This document shows, one piece after another, positions 2,165 to 44,443 of a DNA stretch of 44,443 bases. The stretch is taken from sequence record NC_073073.1; one strand, 5' to 3'. Made by a program: the position numbers and the translations under genes. The DNA is from Escherichia phage mckay. Numbering within the stretch: the stretch's first letter is position 1; each line of letters opens with the position of its first letter. The notes beneath the pieces were generated by a model, which saw nothing but the letters and a program-made list of their open reading frames with translations, did not search any database and had not been told where the DNA came from.

Positions 2165-2399
2165 AGTATTTGCAATCTTATTGATGTTTGTTATCGGCGC
2201 GCTGGGCTTTATCCTGAATTGTGTGCAAGGCGTGTTAATGGTGGCGTGGATGGTTCGACATCCGACCCGCTGGCTGGATGACGGTTATAGCGAAGCTGCC
2301 GCCGATTGGGTGGAGAAGAACATCGACCGCCCGCCGTTAAGCTGGATCGAGAACGCCACCAACTACGTGACCAGAAATCTTTTTAATGAAAATGCTTGA
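2157..2399 (+). CDS. Small hydrophobic membrane protein (80 aa)
   Basis: ORF overlapping the upstream stop; N-terminal half is a hydrophobic helix (AILLMFVIGALGFIL). Confidence 0.5.
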   Translation: MNKVFAILLMFVIGALGFILNCVQGVLMVAWMVRHPTRWLDDGYSEAAADWVEKNIDRPPLSWIENATNYVTRNLFNENA

Positions 2400-2489
2400 C
2401 CGCTTAGGCGCAACCAAGTAGATTAGCAACCAAGCCGGACGGGGTGGCTTCCAATAACCCCGATACATGTGAAAATGAGGAATTGGAAA

Positions 2490-6460: not shown

Positions 6461-6735
6461 CACCAGAGGGCAAGGTGCAGAGTCACCTGATGAAGCGGGT
6501 TAAAGAGGTTGGAGGATTCTGCCGAAAACTGGCATGGGAGGGGCGCGCGGGTGCGCCCGACCTGATTATTATCATCAACGGCAAAATAGTGTTTGTCGAA
6601 GTGAAGCGCCCCGGTGGAAAACCGAAGCCGCACCAGGTACGTGAACATGAGCGAATGGCCCGCCGCGGTGCTGACGTTCGCGTTATCGACAACATATCCG
6701 ACTGCGATTTATTGGTTGCTGAATTGGTCGCATAG
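6457..6735 (+). CDS. VRR-NUC domain nuclease
   Basis: Start at ATG 6457 overlapping the HNH stop; GAPDLIIIINGKIVFVEVKRPGGKP...REHE matches the VRR-NUC D...E.K core. Confidence 0.75.
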   Translation: MTPEGKVQSHLMKRVKEVGGFCRKLAWEGRAGAPDLIIIINGKIVFVEVKRPGGKPKPHQVREHERMARRGADVRVIDNISDCDLLVAELVA

Positions 6736-6775
6736 CGGTATAGTGTGCAGGTTGGCACTATCGAGGATTTTAGAA

Positions 6776-9653: not shown

Positions 9654-9685
9654 TTGGTTGCATAATCATATTGGTTGCATTATAT
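9654..9685 (+). promoter_or_regulatory. Tandem TTGGTTGCA motifs forming a sigma70-like promoter (TTGCAT-17-TATATT)
   Basis: TTGGTTGCA at 9654-9662 and 9671-9679; the first supplies TTGCAT, 17 bp later TATATT (9680-9685), upstream of the gene at 9734. Confidence 0.4.
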
Positions 9686-9733
9686 TGAGGGTGTCCGGTT
9701 GGGACGCCCTTTTTAATACCTGGAGACAACACG

Positions 9734-11118: not shown

Positions 11119-11585
11119 AATTACTGATTTGCGATTTGGATGGCGTTATTAACGGTTCAAGCGATGCGCGTGCCGACCTGGTGCCGGGGATAAAAACGAA
11201 ATCAACCTTTTGGGCAAAGTGGCACAAAGCGCACGTCCGCGAAGATCTGAACATGGATATGCTGCCGCTGCTGCGCATGTACAAAGAGCAAGGCTTCGAG
11301 ATCGCGTATCTGACCAACCGGCAGCGCGAATGTTGGGACACCACCGCCGAGCAATTGGAGGTCTTCCCCGTAGGTCGATTGTTCATGCGCCACATGCTGG
11401 ACGACACCCCGCCGCCAGAGTTTAAGGCGTGCGCCGTTTTCAAAATGGTCTGCTATGCGGACGTGTCGGAACTGGTCATCATTGAAGACTGTCCGAAGAA
11501 CATCGCGGCAATTCGTCGGGCGTGTGGTGATTTGGTCCCGAAAATTTACGCAATAAACGTTGCAAAATTCACTTGCAACCAATAG
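11115..11585 (+). CDS. HAD-superfamily phosphatase-like protein
   Basis: N-terminal MKLLICDLDGVI is the HAD motif I (DxD) signature. Confidence 0.5.
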   Translation: MKLLICDLDGVINGSSDARADLVPGIKTKSTFWAKWHKAHVREDLNMDMLPLLRMYKEQGFEIAYLTNRQRECWDTTAEQLEVFPVGRLFMRHMLDDTPPPEFKACAVFKMVCYADVSELVIIEDCPKNIAAIRRACGDLVPKIYAINVAKFTCNQ

Positions 11586-11602
11586 GTTGGTTGCACTATA
11601 GT
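11574..11602 (+). promoter_or_regulatory. Inverted repeat TGCAACCAA-tagg-TTGGTTGCA overlapping a TTGCAA-18-TATAGT promoter
   Basis: Perfect 9-bp inverted repeat with 4-bp spacer at 11574-11595, followed by TATAGT; upstream of the gene at 11649. Confidence 0.4.
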
Positions 11603-12814: not shown

Positions 12815-14091
12815 TTATTTACCTTCCAGCTTCTCCACTTTATGCAACAGGTGGACGAAGGCGGCACACAGATCCATTAACAGAACGTTACTATCCAAAG
12901 ACAGCACATCGTCGGTATACCCGATCTCCTTGCGGTCGACTACAACCTCATTCCCTTCCTCGTCAACCCCCTTGACGTCCTCATAAATGGCGTAACCCGG
13001 CAGCAAATGCACGTATTCCGGGTCAATCCTTGCCAGGTCCTGCGCGATAAGGCCGTATCGCTGTACGTCCGACTCCTTATACTTGAACATTGCCGGAAGC
13101 CATTGTCGAACTCGGTTGTAGCTTTCCTCGCCGTCAGTGTATTGGATTTCTTTTTTAAGGTCGCGGTCCGATAGCGGCGCTTTCTGGAACTCGTTAACCG
13201 AAGGGTTGCCGCTGTTACCACTAATCAGCCTTTGGTCTGGCATAAAGCGGAATAGCGCCTCGGAAACACCGTCCTTCCACGTATGAATCCGGTAGTCCGA
13301 CATTTGAGTGTTACGAGAGCGAACAATGCCTGCGCGCACCCAGTCGGCGTACCATTTGTGCATGGTGAAGCCTACCCAACTGTCAGCCCCATACGATACG
13401 TTAGACAGAACTAAGCCGTTTCTTTCGACGTCATTGAATACTAATGACTCCCCACCATTCAGACGTAATGTTGCGTGTTTAACGTTACTATCATCACCAA
13501 CGCCAAGATTAGCGCGTGCCGACGATTTATCTGCGACGTCTGCCAGGTTCTGCGACTTCTTCATGAATTGCGTAGGGTCGATCGCGTTTTTGAAGTCTTC
13601 GGCCTCATTGCGAAATCCTTGCGCTGCTGCTTCAGATGCCGCGGCTTGTTGTTGCAGGTTGCGCATTTCAACGGGGTCAACTTCCTTCAGCAATTGCGAC
13701 AGATAGCCCCACGACATGCCCTGCATAACTTGCCCGTTCGGCAGCGTTACCGTGACTTCTTCTTCGTCTCCGAAGATGGCACGCCAGTTGTTTTCGTCTG
13801 CGATCATCAAGCGCAACGCTTTCTGTGCCTGTACTGTTACGCCCATCGTTGCCAGCGACATGGTATCGCGCTTAACGCCATCCCACGCGAGGTCTGTTGC
13901 CGTGGGTCCGTCGAACGGCAGCACCAGCGTAAGCGCGGTGTCGCTTTCAACTGACGCGATAGCAACAGTGTATGGGACTTGCCCTACTACCAGCGTTAAG
14001 AAGTCGCCAGCGGTAAACGCGGTAAACGTCGTGCCTACCCCGACAACCTCCTTGCTGTTATTCGTTACGGATAGTGTACCCGCTGCCATAG
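12815..14091 (-). CDS. Tail fibre protein with C-terminal intramolecular chaperone (peptidase S74-like) domain
   Basis: Start taken at ATG 14091 (MAAGTLSV, GAGGA RBS) rather than ORF-track 14116. C-terminal LSDRDLKKEIQY...YGLIAQDLARIDPEYV matches the auto-cleaving chaperone domain of tail fibres/endosialidases. Confidence 0.7.
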
Positions 14092-14106
14092 CTGAATCCT
14101 CATAAA

Positions 14107-14138
14107 TTGGTTGCATTAATGGTTAAGCAGTGCAATAC
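14107..14138 (+). promoter_or_regulatory. TTGGTTGCA-containing promoter-like element (TTGCAT-17-AATACT)
   Basis: Motif at 14107-14115 in the divergent gap between the tail-fibre gene (-) and the lipoprotein gene (+). Confidence 0.35.
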
Positions 14139-14169
14139 TAAAACTAAACCAAATATAGGAGATGATACC

Positions 14170-14388
14170 ATGAAAACTTTAATTATGATTTGTGCGGTTC
14201 TTTTGTCCGGTTGTGCCGACATGCCGTCTAAAATCTGCGACGCAACATACATGAATAGTGGTATGGAGTATTCCGTCCAGGTGTTTGGGGTCGCCGACTT
14301 TAGCGGGCACAAAATGCTCGAGGCCGGGTATCCGTTCAACTTCCAGTATGTGTCGGTCGACCACTTCAAAAGCACCACCTGCGAATAA
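14170..14388 (+). CDS. Small lipoprotein (72 aa), moron on the opposite strand to the tail genes; Cor-like candidate
   Basis: Start at ATG 14170 (AGGAG RBS); signal peptide MKTLIMICAVLLSGC with lipobox LSGC; own promoter-like motif and terminator. Confidence 0.6.
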   Translation: MKTLIMICAVLLSGCADMPSKICDATYMNSGMEYSVQVFGVADFSGHKMLEAGYPFNFQYVSVDHFKSTTCE

Positions 14389-19453: not shown

Positions 19454-20184
19454 TCTGTGATATTCCCCGGTAGGTCTTTATGACGTACCCATTTAACCAC
19501 ATTGTCGCGGAAAAATCCTGACCGGAAGGGTATCACACTCGACAGACTGCCGTAGATATGGTGTAGAAGTTGGTTGCCCGGAAGAAATATCCCGGCATGG
19601 TTAGGTACTGGCGCGCTGATTTGCATAATTACCATTGCCCCCGGCGTATTTTCCTCACACTCCCTGAAGCCCGCGCCGTACCAATTATCCATATACAGAT
19701 TCTCGCCTGTCTCCCACCAGTTATACGGCACGCGGAAGTCAGGCAGGCTTACTCCCTGCTTTTTGTGCCAGTCCATGACGAGGCCGTAACAATCCGTAAT
19801 TCCGAGAACAAATCGACGCCCCACCAGCGGAGGATCTTCAGGGTCGATCTCGATAAAGTCGCCATATTCGTTAGTGATGGCCCAGACTACGCCGCTGCCG
19901 TTGCATCCGTTAACGTCGCCCAGTGATGGGGTAAGCTCTCGCTGGCCTGGGTGCGAGTGGACTACGCGCACGACGTCGCCCATATCCTCCGCATCCATCC
20001 AGGCCATATCACTAATCGTGAACGCGTCTTTGCGTGAGCGCACGCCGGTAGGGTCTTCGAATACGTTCGTGCACGGGACGAATACTTGCTTACGTCCCAC
20101 CATGACGACCAACCCACAGGCTTCTTCCGGCAGACATGCCGCAACGTGCGCGGCGATATCGCTTTTAACCTTTTTCGTTAACAT
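19444..20184 (-). CDS. Tail assembly protein (lambda gpK-like; JAB/MPN plus NlpC/P60 domains)
   Basis: HSHP (JAMM-like) motif in the N-terminal half and DCYGLV...H (NlpC/P60-like Cys-His) in the C-terminal half. Confidence 0.8.
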   Translation of the reverse strand: MLTKKVKSDIAAHVAACLPEEACGLVVMVGRKQVFVPCTNVFEDPTGVRSRKDAFTISDMAWMDAEDMGDVVRVVHSHPGQRELTPSLGDVNGCNGSGVVWAITNEYGDFIEIDPEDPPLVGRRFVLGITDCYGLVMDWHKKQGVSLPDFRVPYNWWETGENLYMDNWYGAGFRECEENTPGAMVIMQISAPVPNHAGIFLPGNQLLHHIYGSLSSVIPFRSGFFRDNVVKWVRHKDLPGNITEWQ

Positions 20185-24250: not shown

Positions 24251-24314
24251 TATGCAGTCCCCTTTTTTATGCAGTTGCCGATTGATATTGTATCAGCGAT
24301 TTCAAAACAAACCT

Positions 24315-24487
24315 TATTCAGTCTCAGACGAGGGGGGCCATTGACCCCCGTCTAGTCTGAAAGACTGGGGTGCTGTCCCGCTGTCCCGATCGGCTGAAAA
24401 CCGCGGCAGCACTGGCGGGGACGGGGTGCTGTCCCGTTTTGTCCCGCCCCTTGTTTGTCCCGCTTTCTGTCCCGCTTACTTTATGCA
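24315..24487. repeat. Copy A of a ~175-bp noncoding element (imperfect hairpin plus TGTCCCGC iterons)
   Basis: ttattcagtctcagacgaggggggccaTtgacccccgtctagtctgaaagactggg and ggtgctgtcccgTtttgtcccgccccttgtttgtcccgctttCtgtcccgcttaCtttatgca recur nearly identically at 40963-41136. Confidence 0.7.
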
Positions 24488-24637
24488 ATAAAACTGCATA
24501 GGTATGCACATTTACAGGGCGTGACAAAACGGGACGTCCCGCCTGTCCCGCTTTGAGTTTATGCAATGAAAGTGATTAGATATGCGGTTTTACAGAGGCG
24601 GGACAAAACGGGACGTCCCGCCTGTCCCGCTTCATTA
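24480..24637. repeat. Two tandem ~79-bp direct repeats, each ending in the 12-bp palindrome CGGGACGTCCCG plus CCTGTCCCGCTT
   Basis: Palindrome at 24530-24541 and 24609-24620; each unit begins with tttatgcaat(a/g)aaa and contains ttacag(g/a)g. Confidence 0.65.
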
Positions 24638-24958
24638 TGCGGGGTTCTGCTGCGCCATCTCATCAAGCGCGATTCGTTCCATTAGCTTGATATCTTTAAA
24701 CGCGCGCTGCTCGTTTTCGATACCGTGCATCTTAAATAACCACTCCAGCACGCCGTAGTCGATGCCGTATGCGCCACCAAATCCGGTGCGCCATTGCGTG
24801 GAGCAATCTGTGAAGACTGCGACTACCTTCGCGTTGTCGGGCCATAGCGCAACAGGTGGACAAACATCTTCGGGGGCCGCACCCCATAAACTTGCGGCTA
24901 AATCTTCGGAGGGTGGCGGCGGGCCATAAAAGCGTCGCGCCGCCTCAATTAGTTTTTT
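24635..24958 (-). CDS. gpT-like extension reached by programmed -1 frameshift from the chaperone gene (G-T fusion)
   Basis: Slippery heptamer A_AAA_AAC (+ strand gtttttt, 24952-24958) lies just before the chaperone stop; the -1 frame is then open for ~105 codons to TAA at 24635-24637 and has no start codon of its own. Confidence 0.6.
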   Translation of the reverse strand, partial: KKLIEAARRFYGPPPPSEDLAASLWGAAPEDVCPPVALWPDNAKVVAVFTDCSTQWRTGFGGAYGIDYGVLEWLFKMHGIENEQRAFKDIKLMERIALDEMAQQNPA

Positions 24959-30115: not shown

Positions 30116-30205
30116 GCTATCCCCCTGGGATTGTGGCAGAGCAGGCCACCCGCTCGACTTCACGCTTCTAATATTATCAGCGATAAAAATAATCGCAAAA
30201 TTCGC

Positions 30206-30250
30206 TTGCAATCCGCGTATTGGTTGCACTATATTGGTTGCACACCAACA
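30206..30250 (+). promoter_or_regulatory. Promoter-like element with tandem TTGGTTGCA (TTGCAA-18-TATATT) upstream of the + strand moron
   Basis: TTGGTTGCA at 30220-30228 and 30234-30242; the 22-mer ctatattggttgcacaccaaca (30229-30250) recurs in reverse complement at 40765-40786 upstream of a - strand gene. Confidence 0.45.
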
Positions 30251-30264
30251 ACTAGGACACACAA

Positions 30265-31029
30265 ATGAGACTGACGAAAGACATTAAAAACCAGATTCTG
30301 GCTAACATCCTGCGCGACCATGAAATCGCGACCGAAGCCAAATCCATCATGATGGACTCTCGCAACCTTGCGTACGCCATTACGCTGGACTGTATGCCGG
30401 AAGGCATTCGCACTTTCGCCGAGCTACTCGCGCGCATTAAATCAATCGGCGATGACCCGTCGCAGATGTACGGAGTACGCGTATACACCAACAAGGCGAC
30501 GTATAGTTATAACGCTGACCGCCCGTATGGTATCGGCCACGTTTATGACGCCACTTTCGAAATCAACGCCGGCGGAAACGTCCGTACCGTGTCATTGAGC
30601 GGAGACGGACACCGATTCCGAGTACATCGCGGATACTGGGAATATAAATACATGAATAAGCTGTCTCCCGATCTCGGCGATATTGTGCCAGGGTATGAGG
30701 AAATTTTGTTAGCGTCAGTGTGCGAAGTGGACGAGGATGGGAAAGCGCTGCCGATCTATAAGCCGCGCTGTCGTGCAGATTTCCCGGCAGATCATGACTT
30801 CTGCAAGCGCCTGGACCGTAACGACAAGGCCCGCCGCGAGTTGCGTGCTAAGTATGACGCGTTCAAACTAACTGTTACCGGCGTGCTGGATATGCACAAT
30901 ACCGATAAGAAGCTGATCAAGGCGTGGCCTGAAGTTGAACAGTTTATTCCATACCCGGATAAGCCGAAGTCCACGGCGGTGGCGCTGGACGTGAAGACGT
31001 TAAACGAAATCTGCGGTATTCCGCGTTAA
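30265..31029 (+). CDS. Hypothetical protein (254 aa); opposite-strand moron inside the head module
   Basis: Complete ORF with AGGA RBS, own promoter-like element upstream and a hairpin terminator downstream, transcribed against the late operon; no motif I can name. Confidence 0.6.
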   Translation: MRLTKDIKNQILANILRDHEIATEAKSIMMDSRNLAYAITLDCMPEGIRTFAELLARIKSIGDDPSQMYGVRVYTNKATYSYNADRPYGIGHVYDATFEINAGGNVRTVSLSGDGHRFRVHRGYWEYKYMNKLSPDLGDIVPGYEEILLASVCEVDEDGKALPIYKPRCRADFPADHDFCKRLDRNDKARRELRAKYDAFKLTVTGVLDMHNTDKKLIKAWPEVEQFIPYPDKPKSTAVALDVKTLNEICGIPR

Positions 31030-36148: not shown

Positions 36149-36361
36149 TTAAACGTCGCGCCCGTAGTATCGGGTTAACATGCTTTGTACTTCGCTTATC
36201 GCGCCTTCTGTGTAGCGTATTTGCGACAGTATCTCGATCCTCTCGTCCATCGACATTCCGACTGCCGCTGCCGTTCGTTCAAATCGGCGCAAGCCTTCGA
36301 GTTGTTTGCGTAGTTCTTTCAGGCGGGTGGCCTGCGTGCTCATGAATACTTGTCTGATCAT
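36149..36361 (-). CDS. Hypothetical small protein (70 aa)
   Basis: ORF whose start overlaps the upstream stop (ATGA). Confidence 0.5.
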   Translation of the reverse strand: MIRQVFMSTQATRLKELRKQLEGLRRFERTAAAVGMSMDERIEILSQIRYTEGAISEVQSMLTRYYGRDV

Positions 36362-37500
36362 TTCAACATTTCCGGGCTAATGGTTAAGCGCGCTACTTCT
36401 CCGTAGTTGGCGCTATAGGTGATGACGTTTGCGCTGCGACCGGACATCCAACCGCCACGACTGGCGTAGGCGTCTTTCGCTGCGAGCGTCCTGTGCTGTT
36501 CAACAATCATGTTGCGGGATTCAACAATCTTCTGGTGGTGCAAATGGCCTACGTGAGCGTAGCTGTATTCGCTCGACCCGAACGCCTGTCTGAATTTAGC
36601 GATCATAACCTGCTCGATAGCATCGAATCGCGCTTTGTGCCCGTGGTGGAAGAATAGAGTTGTCTTACCGTGCTGCACCATTTTGTAGACGTCCGGGGAC
36701 GTATCCACATCGACGCGCGGATCGTTCTCGTACAGAGTATTGAACATCTCAGCCAGCCAAATCATACCCGACTCGTCATGATTTCCCTGGACGATTAGCA
36801 GTTTGACTTTGTGGTGTTTTTGCAGCGCCAGTTCGACGACGTTGCGCACCATGCGAATCATGTAGCGGACCAACTTCTGGTATCGGGTATCTGCGTCCAG
36901 GATATGACCACTGGCTGGGGTGACGGCATCGAGGCTATCAAAATGCGCCATATCACCGAGGATATTGATTACGGCAGTTCCTGCGTCTGGTGCGCGGGCG
37001 AAGGCTTCGACAAACCAGCGGTAAAACAGGTCTTCGGCAATCGCCATATCCCAGTCTTCGCCAGTCTCCTCGCCCCAGGCCAACATGCCCAGGTGGAAGT
37101 CGGACACGGTATACAGGTTGAGCAAGTCGAGCGCCTTGATCGGTACTGGCGGGGCGTTTACTGGCGCTGCCGGTGTGATTTCGCTGTTCATACCCTCGAC
37201 AACAGCGCGCATAGCTTCGAGTTGGCGCTCCTTGTCCTGCTCGGTGATGACCCATGACATGACCTCCTCGCCATTGCCGCGCACCAGGGCGGAGACACGC
37301 TTAACGCCAAAACCATCGGCAACGCGCTTACGGATTACGGCATCGTTACCGTGACCAATACCTTTTTTCGATAGGCGGGCTTTGCGCATGTAGACATTTC
37401 GGAGGGATAGGCCGTACTTCTTCGCAATATCTTTCGATGTAGTGCCGGATTGCAACTCGGCGATCAATTGCTCGTCGGTGATTTTAGTTTGCGGGTGCAT
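36358..37500 (-). CDS. HTH-fused calcineurin-like metallophosphoesterase
   Basis: 380 aa; N-terminal HTH-like TSKDIAKKYGLSLRNVYMRKARL; metallophosphoesterase motifs DFHLG, GDMAHFD, GNHDE, HHGH, GHLHH in canonical order. Confidence 0.7.
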   Translation of the reverse strand: MHPQTKITDEQLIAELQSGTTSKDIAKKYGLSLRNVYMRKARLSKKGIGHGNDAVIRKRVADGFGVKRVSALVRGNGEEVMSWVITEQDKERQLEAMRAVVEGMNSEITPAAPVNAPPVPIKALDLLNLYTVSDFHLGMLAWGEETGEDWDMAIAEDLFYRWFVEAFARAPDAGTAVINILGDMAHFDSLDAVTPASGHILDADTRYQKLVRYMIRMVRNVVELALQKHHKVKLLIVQGNHDESGMIWLAEMFNTLYENDPRVDVDTSPDVYKMVQHGKTTLFFHHGHKARFDAIEQVMIAKFRQAFGSSEYSYAHVGHLHHQKIVESRNMIVEQHRTLAAKDAYASRGGWMSGRSANVITYSANYGEVARLTISPEMLK

Positions 37501-37705
37501 ATTAATTCACTTCCAGATTATGGGATCGAAGACAATATACCACTGTCCCTATGGCGGCGGGCTATAGCAATTCGCAAATAACCATACCGATGAATGCTGA
37601 GGCGGACCAGATCGCCAATACCCAAATATCATTACGTGCCATAGTGTAATACTCCTCTTGTTGATTGGTCGCAGTATGGTCAGATTGTTGGTTGCAAGTC
37701 AAGCA

Positions 37706-39394: not shown

Positions 39395-39955
39395 TCATTT
39401 CAGAATCACCGAGCGCGGGTCGATGGCCTTCATGCTGCCGTCTGGTTCGACACGGATAAACCCGACGCCGTAGCTCTTCGCGTCGTCGTTAGCCTGGCGA
39501 ACAGCATACTGCTTGTCAATCAGGTCGCGCATGGCGGCATTCATGCGCGCGTTAACCTGACTGGCATCGTATTTGGTATATGGGTGCTCCGTACGGGTAA
39601 GATCTTTCGCCACGACGCCAGGGCGCTTGAACTGCTTAAGCAAATAGTTCCGGCCTACGCGAGTGAAGTTAATTAAGCCTTCGGGCGGTACGACGCGCTG
39701 TGTATTGCGGCTTTGCAGTATAACGCTGACAGTACTAACGCGCTGGGCAACGAACAGTTTGCCGTCGTTGCTATCACGCAGCACATCCCCGACCCGCACG
39801 TCGTGATGCACAACCTGCAAATGTTTATGTAGGCCGGATTTCTTGTACCAGAATACGCGGTCGCTCGGCTCATGGTACATGCGCACATAGTTCGGCAGCA
39901 CTTCGATCGGGGTAAGGAATCGCCCATTATGTTTATTGCGGAATATCAGTTTCAT
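39395..39955 (-). CDS. Hypothetical protein (186 aa)
   Basis: ORF overlapping the upstream stop by 4 nt; no recognisable motif. Confidence 0.5.
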   Translation of the reverse strand: MKLIFRNKHNGRFLTPIEVLPNYVRMYHEPSDRVFWYKKSGLHKHLQVVHHDVRVGDVLRDSNDGKLFVAQRVSTVSVILQSRNTQRVVPPEGLINFTRVGRNYLLKQFKRPGVVAKDLTRTEHPYTKYDASQVNARMNAAMRDLIDKQYAVRQANDDAKSYGVGFIRVEPDGSMKAIDPRSVILK

Positions 39956-40221
39956 TTCGCCAGTCTCCAGTGTTTGCCTACCCGCTCAACGGCGGGCTTC
40001 CGGCGTAATGTAATACGGATCCCCATTGGTTGCAAGGAGGTCCGCACCCTGAAATCGTGTTGTGCTGCGAACTGGTGCAAGTAGCTAGTCTGCGTCAACG
40101 GCTTCACGTCATCGCGATAGCTCCAGAATATAGATTCGCCCTCAACCGCATTCTTAGCCCATATTCGTATGCAATGCAGGGGAATATGCCACGAAAGCTG
40201 TTTGGCGCGCCTACGGCTCAT
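39952..40221 (-). CDS. Hypothetical basic protein (89 aa)
   Basis: ATG 40221 with AAGAGG RBS; Arg-rich. Confidence 0.45.
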   Translation of the reverse strand: MSRRRAKQLSWHIPLHCIRIWAKNAVEGESIFWSYRDDVKPLTQTSYLHQFAAQHDFRVRTSLQPMGIRITLRRKPAVERVGKHWRLAK

Positions 40222-40764: not shown

Positions 40765-40820
40765 TGTTGGTGTGCAACCAATATAGCAAGGTGCCAGGCT
40801 GAATGCAACCAATATCAAAC
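40765..40820 (-). promoter_or_regulatory. Promoter-like element for the leftward middle genes (TTGCAT-17-TATATT with TTGGTTGCA motifs)
   Basis: On the - strand ATTGGTTGCAT...TATATTGGTTGCACACCAAC, the same arrangement and near-identical sequence as upstream of the + strand moron at 30229-30250. Confidence 0.45.
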
Positions 40821-40962
40821 ATGCGCATGAAAAAGTTGATCGCTATCTGCTGCAGCTGCAAACTGCATTTTTCACTCAGCATAATACAACTCGCATTGGT
40901 TGCCTAGTTCATCAACGACCGCAATTCACATCATGTTGCCGTGTATTATGCAATCCCGGATT

Positions 40963-41136
40963 TTATTCAGTCTCAGACGAGGGGGGCCACTGACCCCCGT
41001 CTAGTCTGAAAGACTGGGCTTTGTCCCGCCTGTCCCGCCCCTCTGGAAGCCGCGCCATCCGGGCGGGACATGGGGTGCTGTCCCGCTTTGTCCCGCCCCT
41101 TGTTTGTCCCGCTTTTTGTCCCGCTTAGTTTATGCA
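40963..41136. repeat. Copy B of the ~175-bp hairpin-plus-TGTCCCGC-iteron element, next to the primase gene
   Basis: Near-identical to 24315-24487; holds about six TGTCCCGC iterons at roughly 10-13 bp spacing plus an inverted GCGGGACA. Confidence 0.7.
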
Positions 41137-41169
41137 GTTTTAGTGCATAACTATTCATTATATTCACAC

Positions 41170-41284
41170 TACACGGCAACCAATACGACCAGATAAAAAC
41201 ACCTAAAATGGCAACCAATGCGCGCAAAATTTAATCTTTTAGCAATAGGGGAATCCCCACATCGGCAACCAATACGCGCAAAAT
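41170..41284. repeat. Tandem direct repeats: 3x GCAACCAAT and 2x CGCGCAAAATTTAATCTTT
   Basis: GCAACCAAT at 41176, 41211, 41265; CGCGCAAAATTTAATCTTT at 41221-41239 and 41275-41293 (the second copy runs 9 bp past the feature end into the primase stop region); lies between the primase stop and copy B. Confidence 0.55.
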
Positions 41285-43549
41285 TTAATCTTTCAGGTCG
41301 TCATCGGTCGCCGAAAGCGTGATGGGTATACTCGTTTTGATGACGATATTCGACGACCCATAGATGGCCCCGGTGTGCGGATCTGTATAAAAACCAAGTA
41401 CGCCGCGCTCAACCATATCGTCGATTGCCTTCGTCGATGTGCCACCTTTTGCCAATCCCGCCTGGCGGACAATTGCCGATTTACTGAATCCGGTATGGTC
41501 CGGGTTTTCTTCCATCAGTTTTTCCAGCGCCGCATAAAGCACTTTCTCTTTTTCGTTGCGCGGTCCTGCGGCATTCTCCTCCTTAACTGCGGCCTTGCCC
41601 GCGGCCTTCGCCTGTTCGATGGCGAACGGTGCCAGGGCGACCGGTACGAGATACAGGGTCTCGTCGCGCGGCGTGGATGCGATCGGCTTGACGTCCCAAC
41701 CGGCAACGACGTCACCGAAGTCTGGCCCGGTGCTGGTGGACTGGTGTGCTTCGAACGCTTCGGACTTGCGGAGATCAACCTTAACCTTGCACTTGAGCAG
41801 GACGAATCCGCGCGGCGCTTGCTTGATGCCGTTACGTGCCTTTTCGTGATACAGGTTCAATTGGCCTGGCTGGTTGTCGTCAGGCTGTTCCAGGAAGAAC
41901 GCAGAATCGACAGCACCATGCAGCGCGCCGGACCCACGGGGAGATCTGCTGCCGTTTGCACCTTTCGCTGGGTGGTGGATGACGCCCGCACTGCCGCCTG
42001 TGTTTTCCGCAATGGCCTTCAGCGCTTTGACCACTTCGCCCATATCGCTGGCGTTGTTCTCGTCGAACGGTTTAGCATCGGCGGACCGCAACGCAACAGT
42101 CTGGTTGAGTGAGTCGAACGCCACCAGGCCAACCGGTTCGCCGTTGGCGGTGCGGTTGATAAAGCTGATAACTTCACGCAAGCCCGACTTGCTGGTGATA
42201 TCCCAGCCGCGTGATTGCAGGTCGATAATGTGCAGCTTGTCCAGGTCGTGCTCATATTTGATCTGCAGTGCTTCCTTACGCTGGTTGGAGGCTTCTCCGC
42301 CTTCCGCATCGAAATAGAAACAATGAGACTGGACGACCTTCGCACCGCCGAACGGAATACCCGCGGCAACCGCACCCATTTGACCCAGCACGTAGAACGA
42401 TTTACCGATGTTCGATTCGCCAGCCATATACCAGGTCGATTTAAAGTTAATCAGGCCTTCGATGATCGGGTCGTGTTTACTGAATAGTGCGACCGGTTCG
42501 TTATCCAGGTCAGCGTCGGTACATACGCCGTACTCGTCGCCGTCTCCGACCGCATCAACAATGTGGTCATATAAGGATTCGACTTCCTCGTCGTCCAGAC
42601 CTGGCAGGATGGCGGCGATTTGCTTACGCGACATGTTGTGCGGCTCGACGTTCAGGTGGTCCGGTATCCCGATAAGACGTAGCGCCAGGTGCTGGTGTCT
42701 GTTCAGTTCCGAGCAACACTCGTTGCCGGTATGCATACACTTGAAACGGATCTCGCCATCCTTGACCATGATAGCCGTCGACCCTTCGCCGCTGTGCAGA
42801 TGTTCGTTAGGACACGGCACTTCATAACCACGACCGGACGACAGCGGTTCGAATCCTGCCTGGAAGCACCAGTCCAGAATGCCGTCCGCCACGCCGTCAT
42901 CGCCCTGGGTCAGTTCGCGTCGTACTTCCTCTTTTTCCACTCCCAGCTTATCAGCCAGGCGAAGCAGACGACGGACGCGGGCACGTTTGCCGTAGTGACA
43001 CTTAACAACCGATTGCTGGTGAGGCAGGTACATAAGGCGGTTTGTGTCTTTCGTGCAATCATCGAAGTCCACATCTGACAGGCCCAGTTGGTGTAATAGT
43101 GCATACTGTACGCGGCCCAGGTCTTCCGCCGGTACAGGCTTATCGGTGAGCACCAGGAAACGGGCGCAACGCGTGCCGCCCTTCAGCGGGTGGCGGTCGC
43201 CGGTGGTGGTGTGAAATACATGTTCCAGTCCCGCGTCGATGAACGCCTTACGGCAGCGGCGCAGGGTGCGGGTGTCGGTGCGGTCAATATCAAAGAACAG
43301 GATCGAGCGGTCCACCGCACTGGTCTTGCGGCGTAAGCCGTCACTGGTATAAGCCACAATGCCATCGGCCTTACGCTTGCGGCGCGCATACTCCGCTTTA
43401 TCTTCCGTCTTGTTGATATGCACCGAGGATATTTCTTTCGCATCATTGATAAATTCGAAAAACTCTTCGGTAGTCATCCGGAAGTTTTCCGCCCTGGCTT
43501 TTTCGCCTTTTTTAGCGGGTCGTGTTACAGCGAATTTAATTAAGCTCAT
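41285..43549 (-). CDS. DNA primase-helicase (primase-polymerase-like N-terminus, RecA/DnaB-like ATPase, C-terminal wHTH-like)
   Basis: 754 aa; N-terminal ILFFDIDRTD (DxD) with CPNEHLH...C...C zinc-binding-like region; central Walker A GESNIGKS; adjacent to iteron-like repeats. Confidence 0.7.
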   Translation of the reverse strand: MSLIKFAVTRPAKKGEKARAENFRMTTEEFFEFINDAKEISSVHINKTEDKAEYARRKRKADGIVAYTSDGLRRKTSAVDRSILFFDIDRTDTRTLRRCRKAFIDAGLEHVFHTTTGDRHPLKGGTRCARFLVLTDKPVPAEDLGRVQYALLHQLGLSDVDFDDCTKDTNRLMYLPHQQSVVKCHYGKRARVRRLLRLADKLGVEKEEVRRELTQGDDGVADGILDWCFQAGFEPLSSGRGYEVPCPNEHLHSGEGSTAIMVKDGEIRFKCMHTGNECCSELNRHQHLALRLIGIPDHLNVEPHNMSRKQIAAILPGLDDEEVESLYDHIVDAVGDGDEYGVCTDADLDNEPVALFSKHDPIIEGLINFKSTWYMAGESNIGKSFYVLGQMGAVAAGIPFGGAKVVQSHCFYFDAEGGEASNQRKEALQIKYEHDLDKLHIIDLQSRGWDITSKSGLREVISFINRTANGEPVGLVAFDSLNQTVALRSADAKPFDENNASDMGEVVKALKAIAENTGGSAGVIHHPAKGANGSRSPRGSGALHGAVDSAFFLEQPDDNQPGQLNLYHEKARNGIKQAPRGFVLLKCKVKVDLRKSEAFEAHQSTSTGPDFGDVVAGWDVKPIASTPRDETLYLVPVALAPFAIEQAKAAGKAAVKEENAAGPRNEKEKVLYAALEKLMEENPDHTGFSKSAIVRQAGLAKGGTSTKAIDDMVERGVLGFYTDPHTGAIYGSSNIVIKTSIPITLSATDDDLKD

Positions 43550-43559
43550 TGCCGTTGCC

Positions 43560-43889
43560 TTACTTAGAAGTTTTATTATTGCGTACCCAGGAGCGCACTG
43601 TGCTCTGATTAATTCCGGTCAACTCGGCAATCATCGCCCAGGATTTGCCCTCGGCGCGCAAACGGATAACCTGTTTTTTGTATTCTTCCATTTCTTCATT
43701 GTGCTTTTGCAGCTTGCTTGCTGCCGTGCCGTTGAGCAATTCCAGCCTGGCGCGTAATTCTTTTTCGGTAAGTCGCAGACGTTCGATTTCAAATAGCACC
43801 GCACCCACGGCATCGGTATACGCCCAAGACCGGCTTGTCTCACTGCAAACAGTCTTAGTTAACATTTCGATTGCGTCGTCGATATTCAT
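43560..43889 (-). CDS. HTH DNA-binding protein, putative transcriptional regulator
   Basis: 109 aa; C-terminal HTH-like GKSWAMIAELTGINQSTVRSWVRNN; first gene of the leftward unit, immediately downstream of a palindrome. Confidence 0.55.
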   Translation of the reverse strand: MNIDDAIEMLTKTVCSETSRSWAYTDAVGAVLFEIERLRLTEKELRARLELLNGTAASKLQKHNEEMEEYKKQVIRLRAEGKSWAMIAELTGINQSTVRSWVRNNKTSK

Positions 43890-43902
43890 TTTTCTGTCTC
43901 CG

Positions 43903-43919
43903 GTTGGTTAATGACCAAC
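43903..43919. promoter_or_regulatory. Operator-like palindrome GTTGGT-taatg-ACCAAC beside the regulator gene start
   Basis: Perfect 6-bp inverted repeat with 5-bp spacer, ~14 nt upstream of the regulator ATG; a TTGACA-17-TAGTTT promoter-like pair lies just upstream on the - strand. Confidence 0.4.
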
Positions 43920-43962
43920 GAAACTACACCTAAAACCGCAGGGTGTCAACTTCTTTGGAATA

Positions 43963-44055
43963 TTGAAACGGGCGCGCACGCGTGTAATAATACTCCCGTC
44001 TCATTGTCTCTTATTGGTTAGCGCCGTCGCATTTTGCTTCGGCGCTTTTTTTTTT
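43963..44055 (+). ncRNA. Candidate small RNA (promoter TTGAAA-16-TAATAA, ~60 nt transcript, strong intrinsic terminator)
   Basis: -35 TTGAAA (43963-43968) and -10 TAATAA (43985-43990) flank the palindrome CACGCGTG; GCGCCG...CGGCGC hairpin (44021-44045) followed by ten T (44046-44055); no ORF in between. Confidence 0.3.
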
Positions 44056-44066
44056 GAAATTAGTTG

Positions 44067-44096
44067 TTGACACCCATCCTGCAACCAATCTATTAT
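44067..44096 (+). promoter_or_regulatory. Early rightward promoter (TTGACA-18-TATTAT)
   Basis: Consensus -35 TTGACA at 44067-44072, 18-bp spacer containing GCAACCAAT, -10 TATTAT at 44091-44096; ~200 nt upstream of the first + strand gene. Confidence 0.5.
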
Positions 44097-44292
44097 TCAC
44101 CCCGTCGACAGGATGCAGGACGCAAACTGGAGAGGGGCAACGCAGGGGCCGGATCGAAGTGTCAGGATTCCCAACCGTGATTATATAACCCGGTCCACTA
44201 CCCGAACGGGAGAACGCGCAACCGGGCAATATGTTAAGGCCACCGACGAAGTTAACTGCCGACACCTAAACTTAACCAATCGGAGATATACC

Positions 44293-44443
44293 ATGTTTGA
44301 GCAAATCGTAAACCTGATCACTCGCGGCGTAGTAGCACTGGAAACCATCGCTAAGCATTATGAAACCGTTGGCGCTGCCGTTGGTAAACAGGAAGATAAG
44401 AAGCCGTCTAAGGCGAAAAAAGAAGTCGTAGAAGATGACGACG
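44293..44443 (+). CDS. Acidic early protein, N-terminal part (continues at 1-288 across the window end)
   Basis: ATG 44293 with GGAGA RBS; open to the window end and in frame with 1-288 through the 13-bp overlap. Confidence 0.6.
   Translation, partial: MFEQIVNLITRGVVALETIAKHYETVGAAVGKQEDKKPSKAKKEVVEDDD

Follow-up and report, generated by a model that had tools for sequence, protein, structure and literature searches.

We propose that the word R-TTGGTTGC-A, built into sigma-70-like promoters, works as a cis-regulatory element specific to the Dhillonvirus and Eiauvirus lineages and most likely acts as an asymmetric, multi-copy operator for one sequence-specific DNA-binding protein, a reading to which we would assign a probability of about 0.55. 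The word sits in nearly every promoter-like site of the phage under study and of its relatives, in sigma-70-like registers, alignments show that it is under purifying selection across genera, and its most likely role is that of an operator for a regulator of phage gene timing. The operator reading is based on the retention of both sequence and register of the word where non-coding DNA is otherwise unalignable, together with the presence of conserved copies that are unable to be a -35 element.

The window, by which we mean the whole stretch of DNA that was analyzed, is the complete, circularly permuted 44,443-bp genome of a Dhillonvirus, an HK578/SO-1-like virulent siphophage of E. coli with 92-94% nucleotide identity to SECphi4, bob and slur05. 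More distant points of comparison were two divergent sister lineages, namely L187, whose helicase-primase gene has ~70% nucleotide identity to that of the window, and L189, which was found via a remote homologue of the helix-turn-helix (HTH) protein listed below and whose proteins mostly share 45-85% identity with their window counterparts (HTH protein 44%, helicase-primase 68%), together with Edwardsiella phage eiAU-183 of the genus Eiauvirus, whose helicase-primase is 47% identical. A tblastn map made with the proteins of phage bob, supplemented for the candidate binder by Pfam matches and a model, gives the following arrangement:

~44293, across the window ends, to 12788, plus strand: early/replication block
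Bulk of the remaining genome, minus strand: tail, head, terminase, lysis and small genes
12815-14116, minus strand: tail-fibre gene, outside the main pattern
14170-14388, plus strand: cor-like exclusion gene, outside the main pattern
30265-31029, plus strand: Nmad5 gene, outside the main pattern
41285-43549, minus strand: helicase-primase gene
43560-43889, minus strand: candidate binder of 109 aa, predicted to consist of a long helix and, at the C-terminus, a three-helix HTH
43890-44292: divergent early control region, between the HTH gene (minus strand) and the early block (plus strand)

Non-coding DNA makes up 6.5% of this genome, and an Rfam scan of the window gave no match. No sigma factor or RNA polymerase was detected or annotated (41 of the ~62 window proteins, along with bob gp51, scanned with Pfam), and the annotations of bob, HK578, SO-1 and TheodorHerzl contain no integrase or CI-like immunity cassette. 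Our literature search on Dhillonvirus, HK578, SSL-2009a, EP23 and eiAU recovered nothing relevant on promoters, transcription starts, binding or the word itself, and no published account of Dhillonvirus gene timing. Dhillonviruses (SECphi4/18, Bas14-18, HK578) are now routine test phages for bacterial defence systems and phage engineering; the analysis yields a map of about ten promoter-like units, one conserved 10-bp control word and a few candidate readers, which makes the regulatory circuit directly testable and its promoter parts portable and possibly switchable.

The word and its distribution

The word is ten bases long, (A)TTGGTTGC(A). Its information is confined to R-TTGGTTGC-A, beyond which no position is conserved; the base at -1 is A at 15 of 21 window sites. 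Its frequency lies far above what composition would produce: on both strands together there are 12 exact copies of TTGGTTGCA, where 100 dinucleotide-preserving shuffles average 0.31 and never exceed 3; its matches with at most one mismatch number 25 against 11.6 expected; and no 10-mer of the genome is more over-represented than ATTGGTTGCA, which stands at 81 times the order-2 Markov expectation. The initial annotation had placed the motif nearly always between genes, and the core behaves in this manner, with 15 of the 21 copies of TTGGTTGC touching the small non-coding fraction (binomial 6e-14). Of the six copies that fall in coding sequence, four are found at the end of a gene or within an internal promoter-like site, and those at 19570 and 22920 look like chance occurrences.

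All of the sites listed in that annotation exist, but four of them are variants or were given one base off. The copies at 2409-2417 and 2425-2433 read TTGGTTGCG and TTGGTTGCT, respectively, on the minus strand, those between 40896 and 41272 are all TTGGTTGCC, and the last exact copy, earlier given one base off, spans 44080-44088. Variant copies at 6712-6720 (TTGGTTGCT), 6724-6732 (TTGGTCGCA) and 37665-37673 (TTGGTCGCA) had been missed. The perfect inverted repeat at 11574-11595 (9+9 with a 4-nt loop), the 22-mer common to 30229-30250 and 40765-40786, and the half-site palindrome at 43903-43919 (GTTGGTtaatgACCAAC) all proved to be real.

The word does not correspond to several well-known elements with which we compared it. 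The sigma-54 consensus has its GG and GC elements 12 nt apart (TGGCAC-N5-TTGCA), whereas the two are 4 nt apart in the word, and no pair of copies fits. A DnaA box (TTWTNCACA) is matched at 5 of 9 positions. The lambda CII site, taken here as TTGC-N6-TTGC, was rejected on spacing or conserved positions, and the CytR octamer, taken as GTTGCATT, was rejected because the positions after GCA are not conserved. For a PdhR/UxuR operator (ATTGGT-N2/3-ACCAAT), a search of spacings N4 to N6 found palindromes with N5 only, in three copies. As for a replication iteron, the repeat GCGGGACA (AATCGCCCCG in eiAU and GGGGGTGCCA in L189) co-varies with the C-terminus of the helicase-primase, whereas TTGGTTGC is constant and dispersed. 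A search for targets complementary to a putative small RNA showed no enrichment.

Anatomy of the promoter-like units

Placed on the gene map, the copies of the word and its half-site define the following units, all promoters among them being predicted from consensus:

2396-2433, plus strand: TTGACC-17-TAGATT upstream of the Gp2.5-like SSB/annealing gene, with reverse-complement copies at 2409-2417 (spacer, 1 nt before the -10) and 2425-2433 (directly after the -10); invariant in nine genomes, with the same layout in L189
6712-6744, plus strand: -35 TTGCTG from TTGGTTGCT (6712-6720) and -10 TATAGT (6739-6744), upstream of the Lar-like gene and helicase operon, with the TTGGTCGCA copy (6724-6732) in the spacer; orthologues in eiAU-183 (18147/18115) and L189 (3542)
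9654-9686, plus strand: tandem exact copies at 9654-9662 (-35 TTGCAT) and 9671-9679 (1 nt before the -10 TATATT, 9681-9686)
11573-11602, plus strand: perfect inverted pair of a minus-strand copy (11574-11582, -35 TTGCAA) and a plus-strand copy (11587-11595, 1 nt before TATAGT)
14107-14139, plus strand: single copy as -35 TTGCAT, 17 nt, then AATACT, upstream of the cor-like exclusion gene (14170-14388); LM40P1 carries a two-copy version
30206-30250, plus strand: TTGCAA-18-TATATT upstream of the Nmad5 gene, with copy 30220-30228 ending 1 nt before the -10 and copy 30234-30242 overlapping the 3' end of the -10 to form TTGGTtgcacACCAA
37665-37702, minus strand: TTGACT-18-CATACT preceding a 26-aa ORF and the HTH-phosphoesterase and terminase genes, with one reverse-complement copy immediately behind the -35 (37688-37696) and another, with 1 mismatch, immediately behind the -10 (37665-37673); the L189 orthologue is TTGACG-18-TATAGT
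40007-40035, minus strand: internal promoter-like site with copy 40026-40034, ~70 nt upstream of the next gene (39395-39955)
40773-40812, minus strand, upstream of the lysis cassette and of small variable genes: copy 40804-40812 as -35 TTGCAT, 17 nt, then -10 TATATT (40785-40780), with which copy 40773-40781 overlaps, together with ACCAAC
40896-41272: four TTGGTTGCC variants, at 40896-40904 (plus strand) and at 41175-41183, 41210-41218 and 41264-41272 (minus strand), flanking the iteron block (GCGGGACA) that lies immediately downstream of the helicase-primase gene
43903-43949, minus strand: predicted HTH-gene promoter, TTGACA (43949-43944), 17 nt, TAGTTT (43926-43921), with GTTGGTcattaACCAAC, the half-site palindrome (43919-43903), placed 1 nt behind the -10
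44067-44096, plus strand: near-consensus early promoter-like TTGACA-18-TATTAT, where the HK578 GenBank record annotates a predicted promoter; its spacer holds a reverse-complement copy (44080-44088) that stops 2 nt short of the -10, and the corresponding spacer holds two copies in L187 and one in L189

The copies stand in a few fixed registers. At 6712, 9654, 14107 and 40804 the 3' TTGCA(T/A) of the word would serve as the -35, with 18 nt between the word and the -10, and the same register recurs in reverse orientation, as TTGCAACCAA, at 11574 and 40026. Elsewhere the word ends 1 nt before the -10, as TTGGTTGCA-N-TATAKT (9671, 11587, 30220), or overlaps the last two -10 bases, as TATATTGGTTGCACACCAAC, forming TTGGT-N5-ACCAA (30234, 40773). 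Reverse-complement words occupy the spacer of, or directly follow the -10 of, TTGACx promoters at 2396 and 37702, with two copies each, and at 44067, and the four TTGGTTGCC variants at 40896-41272 are without a canonical promoter register. Against a background of 1.2% per position, a -10-like hexamer stands exactly 18 nt after the 9-mer at 4 of 26 sites and 1 nt after it at 5 of 26, and the former excess upholds the earlier statement that the motif supplies a -35-like hexamer 17-18 bp before a -10. The gap-18 register, present at four window sites as well as in eiAU, L187 and L189, belongs to promoters most of which carry further copies elsewhere, and most promoter-like units hold two copies, direct or inverted, at centre-to-centre spacings of 12, 13, 14, 16, 17, 23 or 31 bp. 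Since the coding strand at 40026-40034 reads TTGCAACCAA, 17 nt before TACATT, this copy, previously set apart as intragenic, is better viewed as part of an internal promoter-like site.

Units 2396, 11573, 30206, 37702 and 44067 pass a 9/12 sigma-70 consensus scan, and those at 6716, 9658, 14111, 40808 and 40035 present TTGCWN or TTGCTG 17 nt from TATATT, TATAGT, AATACT or TACATT. The units combine a -35-like hexamer, a spacer of 16-18 nt and a -10-like hexamer with A2 and T6 and, on the tblastn map and the list of intergenic regions, lie upstream of and are oriented toward a gene or operon. Some of them are paralogous, as seen in the shared 22-mer (30229-30250 and 40765-40786) and in the resemblance of 11560-11602 to 30193-30235. 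A generic promoter scan showed no genome-wide enrichment, and the promoter of the long structural operon at 30116-30200 does not contain the word. The earlier description of a promoter family is nonetheless well supported by this anatomy, namely few fixed registers to good -10 hexamers, correct orientation and retention at orthologous promoters. Promoter activity of the units, binding of a protein to the word and the direction of regulation are inferred.

Because most units carry two copies that bracket or overlap the -35, the spacer, the -10 or +1, an occupied site would compete with RNA polymerase or reposition it. That the word doubles as a binding site, as the initial annotation suggested, is a reasonable reading of the equally conserved copies in spacers, over the -10/+1 and in the promoter-less cluster, which are unable to serve as a -35. 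At the TTGACx promoters (44067, 2396 and 37702), reverse-complement copies in the spacer or after the -10 would give shut-off. At the gap-18 promoters, where the word itself makes a weak -35 (TTGCAT or TTGCAA) that is combined with strong -10s, it may tune or activate instead.

Conservation and taxonomic range

In eight further Dhillonvirus genomes, motif columns are 94% identical and 84% invariant, as against 83% and 56% for other intergenic columns (Mann-Whitney p = 5e-11), and in the alignments of all nine genomes, the window included, the words form invariant islands between spacers and flanks that change. The word at 40026 is invariant though the nearby coding sequence diverges strongly in Gluttony and LM40P1, and downstream genes are often replaced right after the motif promoters at 9654, 30220 and 40790. 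In both L187 and L189 the word is found in the same registers at orthologous promoters. In eiAU-183, TTGGTTGC occurs in 23 copies, usually as GTTGGTTGCA, and is the top k-mer of the genome; the gap-18 and -10-overlap layouts are shared, with TTGGTTGCA-18-TATAGTTGGTTGCA upstream of the Lar-like gene as the orthologue of the 6712 unit, and seven copies in its region B occupy a place equivalent to the 40896-41272 cluster. The early control region of eiAU-183 itself is without the word. Copies that cannot be a -35, namely those in spacers, overlapping or following a -10, in the 40896-41272 cluster and in eiAU region B, are equally conserved. The base at -1 is G at 15 of 22 eiAU-183 sites; this concerted difference from the A seen in the window is what a changed preference of a trans-acting factor would produce.

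The word is absent from Cornellvirus FSL SP-031, from 13 metagenomic relatives at a similar distance, from Pectobacterium phage Pappous and Klebsiella phage EKq1, and from T1, which has its own over-represented words. In searches of IMG/VR, one genome per GTDB species and JGI metagenomes with the -35/-10-overlap pattern, the architecture was recovered only in Dhillonvirus and eiAU-183; the remaining matches, with only 2-5 copies each, showed no similarity at the protein level, and L077, the single one looked at more closely, is a coding repeat. The same searches of IMG/VR, GTDB and JGI found no prophage relative. Tandem ATTGGTTGCA pairs in IMG/VR occur in 14 Dhillonvirus loci, and the rest are mostly coding tandem repeats in unrelated viruses; one locus among the tandem matches, L009, has iteron-like copies. 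The motif had been described as phage-specific; its restriction to a lineage stands, but the range should read Dhillonvirus plus Eiauvirus. Its retention across two genera with differing early-region regulators constitutes a modest evolutionary puzzle, which might be accounted for by an unrecognised shared factor or by non-orthologous replacement of the reader.

Candidate readers, alternative explanations and known parallels

The variable spacing of the copies and their occurrence in both orientations call for a binder that is monomeric or very flexible. The best phage-encoded candidate within Dhillonvirus is the 109-aa HTH protein (43560-43889), which the initial annotation had already singled out. 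It scores above the Pfam cut-offs for HTH_23, Sigma70_r4_2 and HTH_28, is the only Pfam-detectable HTH, and the sole detectable sequence-specific DNA-binding domain, among the 41 window proteins scanned and bob gp51, and is modeled as one helix of ~58 residues with a terminal three-helix HTH. One can envisage a coiled-coil dimer with two flexibly linked HTH heads that would engage pairs of 9-mers of variable spacing and orientation; as the product of the first gene of the leftward early operon, it would repress its own and the early promoters and time the others. The gene accompanies the word in all 24 Dhillonvirus-like loci examined, the divergent L187 and L189 among them, and the near-invariance of its C-terminal 60 residues (47-106), kept beneath unrelated N-termini, parallels that of the word, as does the recognition helix I-N-x-S-T-(V/I)-(R/K)-x-W, which is kept in the HK578 and L189 alleles (44-49% identical). 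In most lineages its own promoter region has the half-site palindrome or a full copy beside the -10, L187 having a full reverse-complement copy in the leader in place of the palindrome, but the HK578/CHD5UKE2 allele carries neither. Foldseek and PDB sequence searches returned generic HTH matches only (IstA, resolvase, LuxR/NarL), and a profile search of 1.84 billion representatives found three full-length members of the family, the rest being generic HTH matches.

The circumstantial case for this protein, from co-occurrence and the near-invariant HTH, is set against eiAU-183, in which the 23 copies stand in the same registers while neither tblastn nor blastp of all ORFs detected a homologue. 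An XRE-type gene occupies the position of the HTH gene there, as it does in relatives devoid of the motif, and the sole other small HTH protein of eiAU-183, gp54, is Hin/resolvase-like, unalignable to the 109-aa protein and driven by a typical motif promoter. The 109-aa protein therefore cannot be the universal binder, and as the binder within Dhillonvirus we regard it as possible rather than probable.

Profiling for proteins present in Dhillonvirus and eiAU-183 and absent from FSL SP-031 yielded no convincing transcription factor; the only non-structural proteins left were Dam, an HNH_3-like protein whose catalytic residues are degenerate, and a DUF6378 protein from a family with a homologue annotated in Pappous, which lacks the motif. 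The HTH-phosphoesterase encoded at 36358-37500 (SO-1 gp58, "putative transcriptional regulator") was likewise rejected as the binder, being absent from eiAU-183 and of a product type ("DNA repair exonuclease", PHROG 704) that is also annotated in the word-less T1. There are thus three possibilities for the binder: a shared factor that escaped detection, a reader replaced non-orthologously, which fits the A/G difference at -1, and a host protein.

A different view would dispense with a dedicated binder altogether and see in the units a sigma-70 promoter family, spread by duplication or cassette exchange and kept as a good promoter for host polymerase. The word contains TTGCA and, TGCA being palindromic, offers a -35-like hexamer in either orientation; the gap-18 register amounts to a 17-nt spacer; several promoters are clearly paralogous (the shared 22-mer, and 11560-11602 versus 30193-30235); and gene replacements start right after motif promoters, as expected of mobile promoter cassettes. 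However, the invariant part is TTGGTTGC and not the -35 hexamer, the 5' TTGG lying beyond what sigma region 4 reads, and the copies in spacers, at the -10/+1, after the -10 and in the promoter-less cluster are just as conserved from genus to genus, although no -10 lies at a suitable distance from them. That the base at -1 differs in concert between the lineages, A in one and G in the other, is also hard to reconcile with one and the same host polymerase, and we consider this view rather unlikely.

We think it quite unlikely that the phages exploit a host protein conserved in Enterobacterales that binds the word, an idea that draws on the fact that phages infecting E. coli/Shigella and Edwardsiella share the word but not a candidate regulator. 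The half-site ATTGGT resembles the boxes of GntR-family regulators (PdhR, ATTGGT-N3-ACCAAT; UxuR/ExuR), and GTTGCA resembles the CytR octamer GTTGCATT. Yet the palindromes found here, in the search of N4 to N6, have N5 rather than N2/N3 spacing, and the conserved block spans TGC while the CATT of the CytR octamer is not conserved. The word is moreover absent from the same-host phages T1, FSL SP-031 and Klebsiella EKq1, its architecture-specific pattern was not found in enterobacterial genomes, and the preference at -1 differs between the two phage lineages.

The match of the 109-aa protein to Sigma70_r4_2 above threshold, together with its long helix, also raises the prospect that it is a class II-type factor or a stand-in for sigma region 4, and that Eiauvirus has exchanged it for a reader without homology to it. 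In this role the protein would recognize TTGGTTGCA at gap-18 promoters as a substitute for the -35 and would occlude polymerase at the spacer and +1 copies; we deem this very unlikely, though if true it would make the protein a one-protein early-to-middle switch of a virulent siphophage. Least probable of all is a role of the word in replication or recombination, as accessory origin sites or hot-spots of module exchange: clusters of it do adjoin iteron blocks downstream of the helicase-primase gene (four copies here, seven in eiAU-183) and mosaic junctions coincide with motif-bearing promoters, but most copies are scattered promoter by promoter and keep a fixed register relative to -10 hexamers, co-variation with the initiator, which true iterons show, is not seen for the word, and exchange at promoters may follow from conserved sequence rather than function.

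The multi-copy operator that we favor appears to have no earlier description in the literature we searched and to resemble familiar kinds of lineage-specific phage promoter words, among which are stoperators, P1 C1 operators and T4 MotA boxes. The closest analogue, the stoperators of Cluster A mycobacteriophages, bound by L5 gp71-type repressors, are short asymmetric sites of 13-14 bp, present in tens of intergenic, lineage-conserved copies oriented with transcription; they block elongation in a temperate phage, and their reader is one small HTH repressor, which controls the early promoter as well (PMC9283540). The word is likewise a single asymmetric site with many copies in intergenic DNA, but it occurs in both orientations in both transcription blocks and inside core promoters, and is therefore not strictly stoperator-like; furthermore, the phage studied here is virulent, with no annotated integrase or immunity cassette and with a candidate binder only. 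The C1 operators of the temperate phage P1 are 17-bp, asymmetric, genome-scattered sites, single or paired, each overlapping the promoter of a separate operon and bound by a monomeric repressor. The word is like them in asymmetry, scatter and promoter overlap, but differs in that no C1-like protein is found here.

The MotA box of the virulent phage T4, a 9-bp asymmetric site centred near -30 and present once per promoter, stands in for a poor -35 in many promoters, always equally far from a good -10, and requires MotA plus AsiA. The gap-18 register, with the word at about -39 to -31, is analogous, whereas the additional copies in the spacer and over the -10/+1 are a point of difference; no Pfam match to MotA or AsiA was obtained among 30 window proteins and bob gp51. 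Short asymmetric sites that occur direct, inverted or singly at variable spacing near promoters are also known in the heptamers read by the three/four-helix HTH domains of NarL and GerE. A fold search with the 109-aa protein matched the HTH domains of NarL, GerE, SdiA and TraR, indicating a generic fold only (Foldseek E > 0.6), and the protein differs in having no receiver or ligand domain. Finally, T4-like phages possess promoter-early stem-loop cassettes, in which an early promoter is joined to a stem-loop terminator and which are thought to promote shuffling. Conserved promoter units here similarly flank variable genes and coincide with mosaic junctions, but the conserved unit is the 10-bp word and a hairpin is not obligatory.

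Gene replacement at motif promoters

Alignments of nine Dhillonvirus genomes, the window included, were inspected around the genes that follow motif promoters, i.e. promoter-like units carrying the conserved ten-base operator-like word.
9734, 30265, 40751 and 39955: start positions of genes preceded by motif promoters
Across these genomes the genes directly 3' of motif promoters are swapped for unrelated ones, the alternatives being Nmad5, a DNA polymerase III beta-like moron or others, and the small genes in this position occur as several alleles. Thus, mosaic junctions coincide with conserved promoter units.

A putative small RNA and paired repeat blocks

The promoter scan pointed to a compact unit between the divergent early promoters.
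43963-44056, + strand: promoter match and intrinsic terminator
The promoter match (TTGAAA-17-AATAAT with a TG extension) is the second-best genome-wide, at 10/12, and about 30 nt downstream lies a strong intrinsic terminator, comprising a hairpin at 44020-44046 (-16.2 kcal/mol, z = -3.7) and a T-run. From this succession of signals we predict an RNA of ~55-60 nt. The unit is conserved across the nine genomes, and the 5' GTCTCATTGTCTCTT of the predicted RNA is retained in L189, a divergent sister lineage; the RNA would also include ATTGGTTAGC, a near-match to the word that has one base inserted. The predicted RNA had no match in Rfam, and no enrichment of complementary targets was recovered.

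Two non-coding blocks share ~210 bp at roughly 85-90% identity.
24300-24660, - strand: repeat block
40940-41170, - strand: repeat block
The block at 24300-24660 is situated upstream of the tape-measure gene and that at 40940-41170 downstream of the helicase-primase gene; both are already marked in the GenBank record of the relative SO-1, as repeat regions A and B. They carry a strong hairpin (CAGTCTTTCAGACTAGACGGGGGTCAnTGGCCCCCCTCGTCTGAGACTG) and 7+7 copies of GCGGGACA. The repeat unit varies with the helicase-primase lineage, being GCGGGACA in the window, AATCGCCCCG in Edwardsiella phage eiAU-183 and GGGGGTGCCA in L189, a lineage-linked change as would be expected of initiator iterons arranged as a P4 ori/crr-like pair. 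Because both blocks are on the transcribed strand, they may also have a cis-acting RNA role.

Phosphoesterase gene, window ends and other words

36358-37500, - strand: calcineurin-like phosphoesterase ('DNA repair exonuclease', PHROG 704)
This protein displays an N-terminal HTH-like segment (residues ~8-45), not called by Pfam. Its homologue in SO-1 is named a putative transcriptional regulator; the T1 annotation includes this product type, and eiAU-183 lacks a homologue.

1-288 / 44293-44443, spanning the window ends: first early gene (bob gp51 homologue)
The middle part of its product is unalignable with the protein of the related phage bob, which suggests that an indel or assembly break may be hidden at the window junction.

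A further word, GTTGCCG/CGGCAAC, is over-represented 4.4-fold in the window (49 copies genome-wide; 22 copies for GTTGCCGT).
430, 13896, 15036, 17190, 21015: example sites
Its copies are mainly intragenic, with a weak coding-strand bias (25 sense vs 19 antisense), and related words show enrichment in several relatives, among them eiAU-183 and the Cornellvirus FSL SP-031. In T1, other words are strongly over-represented, namely AACCAGTCAGG (13 copies in the form ACCAGTCAG) and AATAGCAC (14 copies).
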